From the NCBI GenBank assembly GCA_964016885.1, contig OZ024742.1, positions 336,350,001 to 336,414,000 on the forward strand: DNA of 64,000 nucleotides, written 5' to 3'. This DNA is from Eledone cirrhosa. Lineage: Eukaryota. Shown piece by piece: positions 41,291 to 47,094 of this stretch (its first letter is position 1; every line of letters starts with the position of its first letter). A model generated the notes under the pieces. That model worked only from the letters and a program-made list of their open reading frames with translations, did no database searches and was not told the origin of the DNA. Made by a program: the position numbers and the translations under genes.

Positions 41291-43477
41291 ACCATGATGA
41301 CGCGTACTTAATATGAAATTGAAGTATACAGACTGATTATCTGCAGATAGCATATAATGATCCAAATATCATTTTCCATTTCATTAATGTGTCAATAATT
41401 AACACAGCAATGCAGTGTACTTACATTGTCTGGCAGAAATAGCATGCTGCAATACTAAAGAGTTACATTGACTTAGCTGTTGTTGCATTAAAGACGTTAT
41501 GCCATCTAAAGGAATGTTTAAATGTTTCCAGAGTATTCATAACTATATATATATATATATATATATATATATATATATATATATATATATATATATATAC
41601 ATACGTATATATAATATTATTATATTATATTATGTATTTATCTTCATACACGGTACAAAAGCCATATTTTACTGCATATACATACACACACACCTATATA
41701 TATGTGTGTGTTTATGTGTGTATACAAATACATACCTATACACACATAAACATATATATATATATAGAGATAGAGAGCCATACAAATACATACAGCCCGT
41801 ACATATATGCGGGTATATGGGTGTTCTCTTGTATAAGAAATTCTGCACCAATATGTTAATGAAAAACCTATTCCATATTTTCATCCATCAACGTACACAC
41901 CAAAACGCACACACACATAAAAAAAAAATATATATATATATTTATATATACATGTATATATTATATTCACATGGAATCTTTCCAAATGAGAATATCACTA
42001 TCAAGTTCTCTCTCTCTCTCTCCCTCTCTCTCTCTCTCTCTCTCTGTTCGATATTGACTAAGACATAAGCATGATGTTTCTCTGTGCTTCTGTGTGCGAG
42101 GTTTGTGTAGGGAGGAGATAAAACTACTGTGTCCACTCACTAATTGTTACATAACTTTCGCACTGCGAAATATAATAAATAAGCCTTCTTTTTTGGCAGT
42201 AACATAATAGATGTTATACATACTCTCTCTCTCTCTCTCTCTCTCTCTCTCTCTCTCTCTCTCTCTCTCTCTCTCTCTCTCTCCTCCCCCTCTTTCTCTC
42301 ATATATATATATATTTATTATTATTATTATTATTATTATTATTATTATATATATATATATATATATATATATATATATATATATATATATATATATATAT
42401 ATATATATATATATATATATATATATATACTGTGTATGTGTGTGTGTATATATATATATAGTCAAAAAAGTCTGGACGTTCTATACAGATCACGTTAAAT
42501 AACGAAAATGGTAATTAAAATTAAAAAAGGGTTCGAAAAGCACACCAGCTATATATATAAAGAGGATCTTTATGACATGTACAATATATATATATATATT
42601 AATCTGTGAACGCAGAAGTAAATATTTCAAAAAAGGTTGCAACCGAAGAAAGACAGGAAGACGATACTTTGGTTCGTGGAAACGTTCCCTGGCAAAGAAC
42701 GGGAAAAAAAACGAAGATAATACGTCATTAGTTAGTGCGGGAAAACAAATAATTGTTTCATCGCTCCACATAATTACGTATTATCTTCGTTTTTTCCGTT
42801 CAATGCCAGAGAATGTCTCGATGAACCACCTAATAGAATATTAGTCTACGACTTCATTTATAACATAACGTGGTTATGTCTTTGCGTGTAATTGTTTTCA
42901 CCGCACCAAATAATGACGTATTATCTTCGTTTTTTTCCATTCTTTGCCAGGGAACGTTTCCACGAACCAAAGTATCGTCTTCCTGTCGTCCTTCGGTTGC
43001 AACGTTTTTTGAAATATTTACTTTGCGTTCACAGATTGACTTTTTAGCTTCAGAAGATCCCGTTAAGGATGAAAGCAGCGATTTTTTGCTTAAACTTTAA
43101 TCTGTTATTTTAATAAATAATTGCTCTACGGTTCTTATATATCTGATATATATTTATCCTTATCGCGCCCTCTTTGGATTTTAGTCTTCAAATTTATTAT
43201 TATTACTATATATATATATATTGTACATGTTGTACATGTTGTACATATATATATATATATATATATATATATATAACATGTACAATATATATATATATAT
43301 ATATATATATATATATATATATATATATAACATGTACAATATATATATATATATATATATATATATATATATATATATATATATATATATATAGTAATAA
43401 TAATAAATTTGGAGACTAATATATATATGTATATATACGATATTAACAAATGGAAACTATATTTATAAAACTATATT

Positions 43478-43542
43478 TATTTCATTATACATATTTCAAG
43501 GACACCAAGTTAAATTATGGTGTGCTTTCATCAGATAAAATA
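43478..43542 (-). ncRNA. Type I hammerhead, UAUUUUAU-stem family
   Basis: UAUUUUAU-CUGAUGA-AAGcACACCA..UGGUGUcCUU-GAAA-UAUGUA-UA-AUGAAAUA. Confidence 0.8.
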
Positions 43543-43628
43543 TAATATAGAGCAGTTTTATAAATAAATATTGACAACCCTTAAAGAATGCAACCATTAC
43601 TGTTGGAAGCTCCCGGAACTATGTAAAA

Positions 43629-43693
43629 TATTTTATCTGATGAATGCACACCATAATTTAACTTGGTGTCCTTGAAATATGTATAATGAAATA
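43629..43693 (+). ncRNA. Type I hammerhead, inverted partner of 43478-43542
   Basis: Same fold with one stem II mismatch. Confidence 0.75.
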
Positions 43694-43877
43694 AATATGG
43701 TTTTATAATATAGTTTCCATTTGTTAATATCGTATTTTTACTCCAATTATTTGTTGAGTGCTTTATATCAGTTATAAAAATATTTGCTTGTTGCATCCCA
43801 GCAATTTAAATAGAACTTATACATATATATATATATATATATATATAAGATCAAAAGATGGTTAAAAGTGTTCCATG

Positions 43878-43948
43878 TATTTTATTATGCGCATTTCAAA
43901 AACAAATATCATCATGCGATGACATTTGCGTTTTCGTCAGATAAAATA
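43878..43948 (-). ncRNA. Type I hammerhead ribozyme (canonical core)
   Basis: UAUUUUAU-CUGACGA-AAAc GCAAAUGUCAUC gcau GAUGAUAUUUGU u UUU-GAAA-UGCGCA-UA-AUAAAAUA. 8-bp stem I and palindromic stem III. Confidence 0.85.
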
Positions 43949-44180
43949 GGGAGACATGATATGAAGGTTAAAAAACACTTGTGAATAGTGCAGTTTTAAA
44001 TCAACATATCATATATATATATATATATATATATATATATATATATATATATATATATATATATATATATATATATATATATATATATATATATATATAT
44101 ATATATATATATATATATATATATATATAAAATAAAGTAAATTAAATAAGTCAAATGTTTAAAATTTAGCTTCGTTTATT

Positions 44181-44235
44181 ACTGCTATATATATTTCGGC
44201 GACAGCCATCTTTGGCTGTGACCTCTTCAGGCAGT
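44181..44235 (-). ncRNA. Type I hammerhead ribozyme (canonical core)
   Basis: ACUGC-CUGAAGA-GGUcACAGCC aaagau GGCUGUcGCC-GAAA-UAUAUA-UA-GCAGU, followed by AAUAAA. Confidence 0.85.
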
Positions 44236-44367
44236 CCGAATTAGTGTGGTATAGACAAGTAGATATGTTTTTGAGGTGTATAATTTTGTCAATACTCTGA
44301 TATGCCCAGTTCCTGGTTGGGTTGTTATTTCACTGAGGAACTGGAATCATATGATTCCAGTTCCATG

Positions 44368-44438
44368 TATTTTATTATGCGCATTTCAAAAACAAATATC
44401 ATCATGCGATGACATTTGCGTTTTCGTCAGATAAAATA
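44368..44438 (-). ncRNA. Identical copy of the 43878-43948 hammerhead
   Basis: 43870-43964 is repeated at 44360-44454. Confidence 0.85.
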
Positions 44439-44620: not shown

Positions 44621-45131
44621 AATAAACGAAGCTAAATTTTAAACATTTTACTTATTTATTTTACTTTATTTTACATTACTCCGGAGTAACCAAACTAACC
44701 TGCGCACTTCGTCGAGTGCTCCAGCCTGCATACTGAGGTATTGGTATACAACCAACATATACTCAAAATCTCTCTCTCTCTCTCTCTCTCTCTCTCTCTC
44801 TCTCTCTATATATATATATATATATATATATATATATATATATATATATATATATATATATATATATATATATATATATCAATGATATTAATGATATTAA
44901 TATTGGCAAAGGGCGGTGGATTGGCAGTATCGGTAGGGGGTCGAACGCCATGCTTTACAGCAAAGAGTTACGGCACTTTATGGTCCCGCCGCGGTTAACT
45001 TTGCCTTTCATCCTTACGGGGTCGATAAAATAATGTACCTGTAATACATTGGGATAATTGCTGGCCTTGTGCCAAAAGTAGAAATAATTAATAATATTAA
45101 TAAATTGAAACTGTATTTATAAAACTATATT

Positions 45132-45193
45132 TATTTTATATATATTTCAAGGGTACTAAAAAAAACTTTGGTACGCCCTCATCAGATAAAATA
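45132..45193 (-). ncRNA. Hammerhead, same family (small deletion after stem III)
   Basis: CUGAUGA-GGGcGUAC...GUACcCUU-GAAA-UAUAUA. Confidence 0.65.
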
Positions 45194-45846
45194 CAAAATT
45201 TGTTTTATAAATAGCGACATACCCGATAAACCAAACCTTATCGGTTCAGGTTCTATTAAACTAATGTGTACTTACAACCTTAATTCCTTAAAATATCATT
45301 ATATAGATTATCTATATAATATTATAACTCATGATTTAGTTATATATTTTAAAATTTTTGGATTAGTATTCTACCACTTCAACACATTTTTAATTTTTTA
45401 ATTTTTAAATCTACTTGCACCCTAATAATAATTGTTTCTACTTTAGGCACAAAGCTAGCAATTCACCAGTACATTACTGGTACTTTTATTTTATCGACCC
45501 CGTAAGGATGAAAGGCAAAGTTAACCTCGGCGGGATTTGAACTCAGACTGTAAAGAGACGTAACTATGCTAGAAAGCATGGCGTCCAACTCTCTACGAAT
45601 ATTGCAAATTCACTAGCCTATCTTTCTTGCTTCTTCTTCATCTTCTTCTTTTATAAAGTATCCTAATAATTATTTAAATTTACTTAGCGTATAAATATAA
45701 CAATTTTTTCAGTCTACGCTTCTACTTCATTTGCATATCCATCCTAAATGCTTTGAAATATTTCTCTTTTTTTCACTATCCAAATAGAACCTGAACCGAT
45801 AAGGTTTGGTTTATCGGGTATGTCAACATTTATAAAACAAATTTTG

Positions 45847-45922
45847 TATTTTATCTGATGAGAGCGTACCAAAGTTTTTTTAGTTTTTTTATTTGTACCC
45901 TTGAAATATATATAATAAAATA
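45847..45922 (+). ncRNA. Type I hammerhead, same family
   Basis: UAUUUUAU-CUGAUGA-GAGcGUAC...GUACcCUU-GAAA-UAUAUA-UA-AUAAAAUA. Confidence 0.8.
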
Positions 45923-46247
45923 AATATGGTTTTATAAATATAGTTTCCATTTATTAATATTATTAATATCATTAATATTATACTCCAGGAAACCTGTAGA
46001 TTACTTCGAATCTGTTATAATAAATAAGTTTGTTGAATTACCAGCAAATTAAATATCTCTTTGCTTATATATATATATATATATATATATATATATATAT
46101 ATATATATATATATGCAGAGGTTATATTTAATTTGTTGGGATCCAACAAGCTTAAACATTTTTAGAACTGATATAAAGCACTCAACAATTAGTGGAGTAA
46201 ATATACAATATATTAATAAATGGAAACTATATTTATAAAACCATAAT

Positions 46248-46311
46248 TATTTTATTATATATTTCAAGAGCAACCAAGGTAGCTTATGGTGCGCTTTCAT
46301 CAGATAAAATA
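46248..46311 (-). ncRNA. Type I hammerhead, same family
   Basis: UAUUUUAU-CUGAUGA-AAG..ACCA..UGGU..CUU-GAAA-UAUA-UA-AUAAAAUA. Confidence 0.8.
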
Positions 46312-46421
46312 GTTTTTTTTTATAAATAAATATTGACATACCCGCACTATCCAGCGAATTTCAACCGTTGATGTTGTCTTTTTTTCCGGGTATGTCAATA
46401 TTTATTTATAAAACAAATCTG

Positions 46422-46486
46422 TATTTTATCTGATGAAAGCGCACCATAATCTACCTTGTTGTCCTTGAAATATATATAATAAAATA
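46422..46486 (+). ncRNA. Type I hammerhead, inverted partner of 46248-46311
   Basis: UAUUUUAU-CUGAUGA-AAG...CUU-GAAA-UAUAUA-UA-AUAAAAUA. Confidence 0.8.
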
Positions 46487-47094
46487 ATTATGGTTTTATA
46501 AATATAGTTTCCATTTATTAATAAATTCTCTAAAAAGGCTACAGAATAGATTTCCAAATAAGGGCGCGAAAATTTAATGAAAACTTGTTCACGTGACAGC
46601 TATAATTTCATTTATAACCAATCAAATTACGTTTATTAAAAAAAAAGCCTTCGTGAGCCCCTTTTTTTAAGTAAAAAGAAATTCAAACACACACACACAC
46701 ACACACACACACACACAAGCACGCAAATAAACATACATATCTTTACTTTCTTCATTCAATAGAAAATCTGAATTCTGACACCCCAGCGAACTAACCATAT
46801 TCACTGAACCAGAACAATTCTCCCATCCTTTGCTTGTCATAAAATTCTCTAATATGAAATTGATATAATTAATTGTTTCTACTTTTTGGCACAAGGCCAG
46901 CAATTATCCCAGTGTATTACTGGTACTTAATTACGTTAATTAAAAAAACGCCTTCGTGAGCCCCTTTTTTTTAAGTAAAAAGAAATTCAAACACTCATAT
47001 ATGAAAAAACAACCTGTGACACCCCCCCTCCCCCCTCTTATTTGAAGAACTATTTTAACGCGAACTGGCGCGAAATTTATTATAATTATTGACC

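Follow-up and report, generated by a model that had tools for sequence, protein, structure and literature searches.

Among the endonuclease-positive Penelope-like elements, the Hydra clade described by Craig et al. 2021 (PMC8557442) includes Hydra-1_Obim from Octopus bimaculoides as well as Penelope-n_HM. Its members have one open reading frame (ORF) encoding a reverse transcriptase (RT) with a C-terminal GIY-YIG-type domain, a hammerhead motif near the 3' end and (TA)n targets, and an inverted 5'-truncated copy has been published for Penelope-13_HM. The insertion unit of endonuclease-positive Penelopes more generally, as set out in PMC8557442 and for Pen2a of Adineta vaga in PMC3846280, is made up of head-to-head arms with palindromes at the junction, a tail on one arm and an initiator-like (Inr-like) TCACT in the pseudo-long terminal repeat (pLTR). 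PMC8557442 lists among the open questions how Penelope-like elements come to produce tandem and inverted insertions, and this has been partly addressed in vitro (PMC11167929). Most of these features recur in a 64,000-nucleotide stretch of the Eledone cirrhosa genome (assembly GCA_964016885.1, contig OZ024742.1, positions 336,350,001 to 336,414,000; hereafter the window, in whose own numbering positions are given), where ten hammerhead ribozyme motifs are crowded into about 3 kb of retrotransposon ends. Elements of this kind have been described before, including their clade and a representative from octopus. What is new is the set of families, the length of the tail, the copy number and the counts that support rules on the single tail and on 5' extent.

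The hammerhead-rich region very probably consists of five separate insertions of hammerhead-bearing Penelope-like ends between TA tracts, each inverted pair being one insertion in which both target strands were likely cut and both ends extended on element RNA from two internal starts about 90 nt apart. The insertions represent five families, termed A (pair 1), B (pair 2), C (the CUGACGA motif), D (pair 3) and E (pair 4), and only TA or TC/TA tracts part them. An initial annotation, made from the letters alone, had recognized ten hammerheads, four inverted pairs and a CUGACGA motif occurring twice, and all of these were recovered. The pairs lie at 43463-43552/43619-43708 (A), 44125-44355/44446-44676 (B, 231 nt, 96%), 45159-45257/45783-45881 (D, reaching 45087/45967 with gaps) and 46202-46344/46387-46532 (E), and the repeated motif is part of a 95-nt identity between 43870-43964 and 44360-44454. 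The annotation had overlooked the carrier, a Penelope-like retrotransposon, as well as an eleventh hammerhead-like motif at 43046-43098 and the extensions of the arms. Each of these four inverted pairs is asymmetric, with an extension of 85-99 nt, here called the tail, on one arm only, and the elements exceed the coordinates first given, reaching 43820, 44768 and 46066, with E beginning at 46115. The suggestion of an insertion hotspot also stands, as the region holds 10 cores in 3.1 kb against a maximum of 5 in 172 copy-centred loci of 3.2 kb. The cluster is a real pile-up of five or six insertion events, extreme but ordinary. Since insertions leave TA on both sides, a site would stay a target and insertions could stack up. 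Local re-insertion, the other suggestion, applies at most to the 95-nt duplicate and not to the remainder of the cluster.

The hammerheads of the region are type I and minimal. Nine of them, from 43478 to 46486, were recovered with a relaxed type I descriptor, while the tenth, with its core at 45185 on the minus strand, has lost 3 nt at the cleavage site/stem I and is visible only in a listing of cores. A strict descriptor gave seven matches in 43400-46600, compared with none in each of 500 dinucleotide shuffles and none in the remainder of the window, and Rfam at its gathering score gave no match in the window. CUGANGA and GAAA cores with a UH cleavage site are complete in eight of the ten motifs, one of the others having AAAA and one the deletion at the cleavage site. 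Decay is visible in three copies, namely 44566-44620 (GAAA changed to AAAA), 46248-46311 (stem III short by 2 nt) and 45133-45193 (the 3-nt deletion). Stem II is made up of a 3-bp base, a conserved C.C mismatch and a further stem of 6 bp or longer, and the cleavage triplet is AUA. Covariation was followed in 12 representatives, one for each stem II cluster (three decayed or singleton clusters of the 14 were omitted) plus the window E and 16.4-kb motifs. These align with invariant cores, and 14 of 21 stem pairs are altered on both sides, a value reached by 0 of 500 shuffles; 93.6% of cells are paired versus 82.6% in shuffles, again with 0 of 500 attaining the observed figure, and sliding the stem partners drops pairing to 33-55%. 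The test is not R-scape; the structure was drawn from the same sequences, and their kinship inflates the result, which is to be taken as support and not as a probability. With this reservation, stem pairing covaries between families, although the changes in stem I stem mostly from family B alone. The earlier claim of a selected RNA structure is supported between families (the 14 compensatory pairs) and not for the copies at hand, three of which have damaged cores; selection on the hammerhead belongs to the retrotransposon lineages rather than to the window copies. The hammerheads are passengers here, and a function of these particular copies is unlikely.

Monomer folding is unremarkable for most of the motifs, with z scores of -3.2 and -3.3 for the two family B motifs and -1.8 to +0.5 for the other eight, as is expected from AU-rich stems and a palindromic helix III. 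This helix remains self-complementary while its sequence changes between families. Among 336 descriptor hits, which come from overlapping loci and about five families, 318 have one of three fully self-complementary stem III forms, AUAUAUAU (155), AUAUGUAU (96) or AUGCGCAU (67). On sequence grounds, a palindromic stem III predicts dimer-dependent cleavage in element transcripts, and a low, dimer-dependent activity has been reported for minimal hammerheads of this type (PMC4209133). The motifs described there share with those of the window a short palindromic helix III, a long helix II, many consensus families per genome and mostly truncated copies, and in Schistosoma mansoni motif pairs lie on opposite strands 100-700 bp apart; the 3-bp base with C.C mismatch in stem II and the AUA triplet set the window motifs apart.

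Each piece of the window was searched against the animal's own 3.0-Gb genome, with the best 40 candidates scored per search, and among these candidates dispersed copies of every piece were found on many contigs. One homologue comes from Argonauta hians. The terminal units of A, D and E are 79-96% alike. Each family has two exact 3' ends, the long one 85-99 nt past the short one, with TA repeats after both, and in family A 29 of 30 tails run into TA/CA repeats. A 20-nt pattern of stem I and core of the A/C/D/E-type motif has 59,981 exact genomic matches (30,159 and 29,822), a density of one per 50 kb, and its reversed control has none. The families account for at least some 60,000 hammerhead motifs, and those in the window were missed by the Rfam thresholds. 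They also account for many short inverted repeats, which could form double-stranded RNA when transcribed inside host genes.

ORF-bearing copies, found by following family copies that extend upstream, have the order pLTR(hammerhead)-tail-ATG-RT/putative endonuclease ORF-3' untranslated region (UTR)-pLTR-tail. In family B this is seen in loci L133 and L134, where the pLTR with its hammerhead is followed by the tail, about 54 nt, the ATG, the ORF, about 1 kb of 3' UTR and a second pLTR, which in L133 is followed by a tail in turn. On the map of L133 the preferred 5' end is position 1629 and the cut is predicted after 1795, with the short end at about 1851, the long end at about 1949 and the ATG at 2003; the predicted cut is therefore about 56 nt from the short end and the ATG 208 nt downstream of the cut. 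L133 and L134 are partial tandems, and L129, L130 and L132 are inverted with one tail, L129 and L130 having natural frames that run for 893-894 codons without a break. A frameshifted ORF is terminated by family C in L091, by family D in L185, L187 and L190, and by family A in L268 and L269, and these remnants are 35-60% identical to the 891-aa protein of family B. A continuation of the family A tail into a family D-like leader was considered and dropped when a pattern search returned no matches; A was then linked to the ORF remnants by upstream sequence.

The 891-aa protein contains RWK37, DKT120, YRDD351, CxCx5C752 (CNCRNPESC), YIG786, CxxC850 (CKLC) and CxH878 (CRH), and no Cx2-5CxxC or CCHH pattern was found in it; CNCRNESNC in family D corresponds to the linker motif. 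RWK, DKT, CxCx5C, CxxC and CxH without CCHH are Hydra-clade features according to section 11 of PMC8557442. YRDD is invariant in 43 aligned homologues, and a structure model built from these (predicted local distance difference test, pLDDT, 79) has telomerase TERT (3du5) as its best fold match in the PDB, so that the ORF is predicted to fold like telomerase RT. The C-terminal domain has the YIG motif and is well modelled, and on a fragment Pfam GIY-YIG gave E=0.0016 at 19.1 bits, below the cut-off of 22.6. Pfam RVT_1 matches only 2 of the 43 family members, and a PDB sequence search returned nothing above cut-off for the intact ORF. Together these motifs point to a Penelope-like retrotransposon with a Hydra-clade protein, the clade being read from motifs rather than from a tree. 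The family B ORF has two low-complexity inserts (L130:2419-5091; aa 480-614 and 695-746), unstructured in the model with pLDDT below 50, at the thumb-linker interval; they are missing or shorter in family D and resemble the asparagine-rich inserts of Adineta Penelope.

Several differences from the published Hydra clade and insertion unit should be mentioned. The window hammerheads are unlike the motif listed for Hydra-1_oBim, which makes these other families. Elements of the clade are described as generally under 3 kb, a tendency and not a rule, whereas family B has a repeat unit of about 4.1 kb (L133) with its two low-complexity inserts. The tail measures 85-102 nt and ends upstream of the ATG, compared with 30-40 bp in the published unit, and a single hammerhead pattern has about 60,000 genomic matches. 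A one-sided tail is worded in the published accounts as occurring "often" or "optionally"; here it is seen in 33 of 35 pairs, together with a bias of 5' extent toward the untailed arm. Short non-coding hammerhead units related to Penelope pLTRs also make up the non-LTR retrozymes (bioRxiv 10.64898/2026.07.22.740005). Those are described as head-to-tail tandems of a 150-400-nt unit with a hammerhead in each, whereas the copies sampled here are head-to-head or solo, and no tandem of the hammerhead unit was found in the window, a genome-wide tandem scan not having been made.

The one-tail rule is the clearest property of the pairs. Exactly one tail is present in those 33 of 35 short pairs of families A, B and C (p=2e-8 against 0.5), including all 14 B and C pairs, for which the query was a single arm without the tail; for family A the pairs had been sampled with a paired query, and for E with the complete element of the window, which biases both samples. 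When family A copies were chosen by the tail alone (28 copies, omitting the window's own copy and one duplicate locus), 22 had an inverted partner within 450 nt and 21 of the 22 partners were untailed. Of the latter 21 pairs, 16 have an untailed arm that extends beyond the tailed one at the 5' side, 3 show the opposite and 2 have arms of equal reach (p=0.004), and the untailed arm is also the longer in 18 of 20 family E pairs, a sample biased by its query. Among neighbours within 5 kb, taken from the first 100 listed genomic motifs, 20 are head-to-head, 5 same-strand and 4 tail-to-tail. Three young long pairs have arms that differ by 1-4 mismatches per 1.56 kb versus 5-17 between loci, which implies that both arms share a source unless gene conversion has homogenized them.

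The 5' ends of the arms gather between TC and ATATG in families B and C, or at CACTATCC in A, D and E. Of 39 B arms 19, and of 33 C arms 12, begin no more than 8 nt from the Inr-like site, and most of the others are longer copies that continue upstream; none of the 72 arms begins within 5 nt of the predicted ribozyme cut. The pair centre varies from copy to copy, and 13 of 21 A pairs have a microhomology overlap at the junction. At the junction of the window B pair lies the 95-nt family C piece, whose twin is 490 nt upstream. The piece is most simply explained by local templated filling, although family C is too uniform to prove it (the window unit is identical over 155 of 156 nt to 29 of 29 other top copies). 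The one private base of the neighbouring C copy, at 43869, sits just outside the duplicate, and local DNA and another C RNA are therefore indistinguishable as its source. Among 22 fillers of at least 12 nt, the others matched the element itself or nothing, and none was unique flank.

These properties can be brought together in the following way. The preferred 5' end would be the transcription start, in which case short copies would be complementary DNAs (cDNAs) of the first 160-320 nt of uncut RNA. Both ends of the cut TA target would be primed, one per site, with both cDNAs heading for the 5' end of the RNA. The untailed arm would come from the proximal start and in most cases extend to the 5' end of the RNA, and the tailed arm would come from the distal start and in most cases halt earlier; the cDNA ends would then be joined through microhomology or by synthesis of a filler, of which the trapped family C piece would be an example. 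A start in the 5' pLTR would yield short units and one in the 3' pLTR long units. A precedent for much of this is the Poseidon element PAc of Anolis carolinensis (Frangieh et al. 2024, PMC11167929), whose two internal RT starts downstream of the hammerhead, AT-rich targets and uncut RNA template match what is proposed for the window families. In vitro, as reported there, both strands are cut and extended by the anole Penelope protein, which initiates at two internal RNA sites delimiting the tail and works preferentially on uncut RNA; it is predicted to form a dimer, and a dimeric enzyme step here would be by analogy with that work. PAc belongs to another clade and its ORF begins inside the hammerhead, in contrast to the ATG 208 nt past the predicted cut here; in that account the two start sites are not assigned to the two target ends, and no strand difference was seen.

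A number of observations weigh against this reading of five double-primed Penelope insertions. The two-start, two-end mechanism is likely, but it is drawn from genomic statistics. The tail is on both arms in one A pair out of 21 and in one out of 22, in 1 of 20 E pairs, in L185 and in the window pair at 15.7-16.6 kb, neither arm does so in 1 of 21 A pairs, and the tailed arm is the longer in the 3 of 21 tail-selected A pairs counted above. No short partner is present at 20 of 29 B loci and 24 of 29 C loci. Gene conversion could account for the likeness of the long arms, and the arms of short pairs in A, B and C are no closer to each other than to other loci (A 0.029 versus 0.032, B 0.014 versus 0.014, C 0.021 versus 0.015); only family E differs (0.028 versus 0.038). 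Pfam found no RT or GIY-YIG above cut-off in the intact ORF, and family E had no link to an ORF among 22 loci and may be non-autonomous.

Of the alternatives, the strongest is that the same elements formed their pairs by self-priming, in which the antisense RNA or first cDNA folds back on itself and an endonuclease later trims the tail off one arm. The initial annotation had called the pairs fold-backs, which is apt for their appearance. As an origin, fold-back is unlikely, since in many pairs each arm holds sequence absent from the other. It is consistent with the near identity of the arms in young long pairs and with short palindromes at many junctions, such as the 28-nt palindrome at 44337-44364; PMC3846280 argues from junction palindromes for self-priming in rotifer Penelopes, and PMC8557442 ascribes the tail to endonuclease resolution. 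However, two joined copies of one end are palindromic under any model, and initiation at two internal sites has been shown in vitro (PMC11167929). Fold-back also predicts that one arm is a subset of the other, whereas 16 of the 21 A pairs chosen by their tail combine extra 5' sequence in the untailed arm with the tail in the other. Plain fold-back cannot make these 16 pairs, and with private sequence in each arm it would need extra trimming that removes the tail preferentially from the template arm. The counts favour double priming over self-priming.

Alternatively, two RNAs paired through the palindromic hammerhead stem III could act as the two templates, with the ribozyme fold organizing the insertion. 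The full self-complementarity of the three commonest stem III forms, as in the dimeric minimal hammerheads of PMC4209133, fits this proposal, but it is decidedly improbable. In family J, a sixth repeat family at 42601-43221, the stem III loop is non-palindromic and the same one-tail head-to-head pairs are found in 5 of 5 paired loci (L227-L231), and Naiad elements without canonical hammerheads still form inverted units with a tail (PMC8557442). Catalytic mutants left insertion unchanged in vitro (PMC11167929), and two equivalent RNAs alone do not account for the one-tail rule. More doubtful still is an assembly artefact in the low-complexity TA tracts as the source of the pairs or of their density. 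Such tracts are error-prone, and no independent contig or read spans this exact locus, none of the contigs or restriction site-associated DNA (RAD) reads bridging it, though the junction class itself was seen. Against an artefact, the arms differ by 3-11%, the same anatomy recurs at dozens of loci with differing centres, in contigs of independent short-read runs 44339-44364 is joined head-to-head to varying sites in the partner arm, and raw reads from two further samples stop at the family boundaries 46130, 46357 and 46524. Finally, the short, high-copy, inverted-repeat form with arms 89-97% identical recalls miniature inverted-repeat transposable elements or Foldback-like DNA transposons with hammerheads incidentally in their terminal inverted repeats, an identity rejected as next to impossible because symmetric ends and a uniform interior are absent, the arm ends being unequal, the centre different in every copy and many copies single-armed, and because the same units terminate RT-encoding ORFs.

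Double priming may be taken one step further. It is possible, although we would not yet expect it to hold, that every paired Penelope insertion arises in a single concerted step, with a dimeric enzyme priming the two ends of the double-strand cut at two fixed sites of the same uncut RNA and using the proximal site before the distal one. The second copy, from the distal site, would have to displace the first cDNA and would stall, which would account for the single tail, for the shorter length of the tailed arm and for the head-to-head joining. No published double-priming model or structure was found in the searched, mostly open-access literature, and older Penelope reviews cited for the tail may hold more. 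The families offer a large natural sample with two sharply separated start sites and intact ORFs, for which the rival models give countable predictions. If the concerted event is real, tens of thousands of such insertions and a tail three times the published length would make Hydra-type families the system in which to prove it.

Table 1. Features of the hammerhead-rich region, in window coordinates.
Feature	Position	Strand	Remarks
Family A untailed arm, nearly complete short unit	43436-43618	-	Hammerhead 43478-43542, predicted cut after 43486; 97% to 3' end of ORF-bearing copy L269
Family A junction filler, 9 nt	43619-43627		
Family A 5'-truncated arm	43628-43735	+	Hammerhead 43629-43693, predicted cut after 43685
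Family A tail, ~85 nt	43736-43820	+	On 5'-truncated arm only
TA tract between A and C (target/spacer)	43818-43847		
Family C solo untailed unit	43848-44009	-	CUGACGA hammerhead 43878-43948; begins at the family's fixed 5' end; 99% to ends of ORF-bearing copy L091
TA tract between C and B	44010-44129		
Family B untailed arm	44130-44350	-	Hammerhead 44181-44235, predicted cut after 44186; 98% to L095 3' end, 91% to both L133 pLTRs
95-nt family C fragment in family B junction	44360-44454	-	Hammerhead 44368-44438; 5-6-nt microhomologies on both sides
Family B tailed arm	44449-44673	+	Hammerhead 44566-44620 with AAAA
Family B tail, ~95 nt	44674-44768	+	In full-length copies runs on ~54 nt to the ORF start codon
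TC and TA tract between B and D	44769-44879		
Family D untailed arm	44880-45257	-	Damaged hammerhead 45133-45193; SINE-like repeat near 3' end at ~44907-45085
Family D long arm	45254-45967	+	3' UTR 45254-45782, SINE-like repeat ~45421-45620; terminal unit hammerhead 45847-45922; 90% to ORF-bearing L185, L187, L190
Family D tail, ~99 nt	45968-46066	+	
TA tract between D and E	46066-46114		
Family E tail, ~86 nt	46115-46200	-	
Family E tailed 5'-truncated arm	46201-46344	-	Hammerhead 46248-46311
Family E untailed arm	46346-46523	+	From fixed 5' end; hammerhead 46422-46486

Outside the five insertions, family J has 3' ends at 43119 and 43221, a tail of 102 nt, and a short inverted piece of its long end at 43394-43420. 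Its hammerhead-like motif, the one at 43046-43098 on the plus strand, has A at core position 4 in 16 of 16 arms and the full CAGAAGA core in 13 of 16, with stems II CCC/GGG, III AGCA/UGCU and I AGUUU/AAACU in most copies. The sequence suggests a fixed U4A core variant, and no paper on a U4A hammerhead was found in the searched, mostly open-access literature. A related family forms the head-to-head pair at 15700-15910 and 16395-16610, which has long extensions on both arms, is split by a TA/CA/TG microsatellite and has the core GGAA instead of GAAA. Unrelated type I hammerhead families occur in the flanks of sampled loci (L083, L208, L225, L035, L044, L080 and L149), with stem I AGUCA/UGACU or UUCAUU/AAUGAA, the latter with a 9-nt stem III segment.

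Family D has eight near-identical hits within 1 Mb (G000:C8:39126697-40123972), suggesting a large segmental tandem array. The two repeats noted in Table 1 at 44907-45085 and 45421-45620, likened to short interspersed nuclear elements (SINEs), are in opposite orientation and both inserted in the family D element; the repeat has more than 15 matches in the window, and its label comes from size and abundance rather than from a database. Elsewhere in the window, long ORFs at 28928-32387, 35308-37370 and 60013-63438 presumably encode proteins of the non-LTR retrotransposon kind (endonuclease/RT), and one such long ORF, on the minus strand, is 1141 aa in length.

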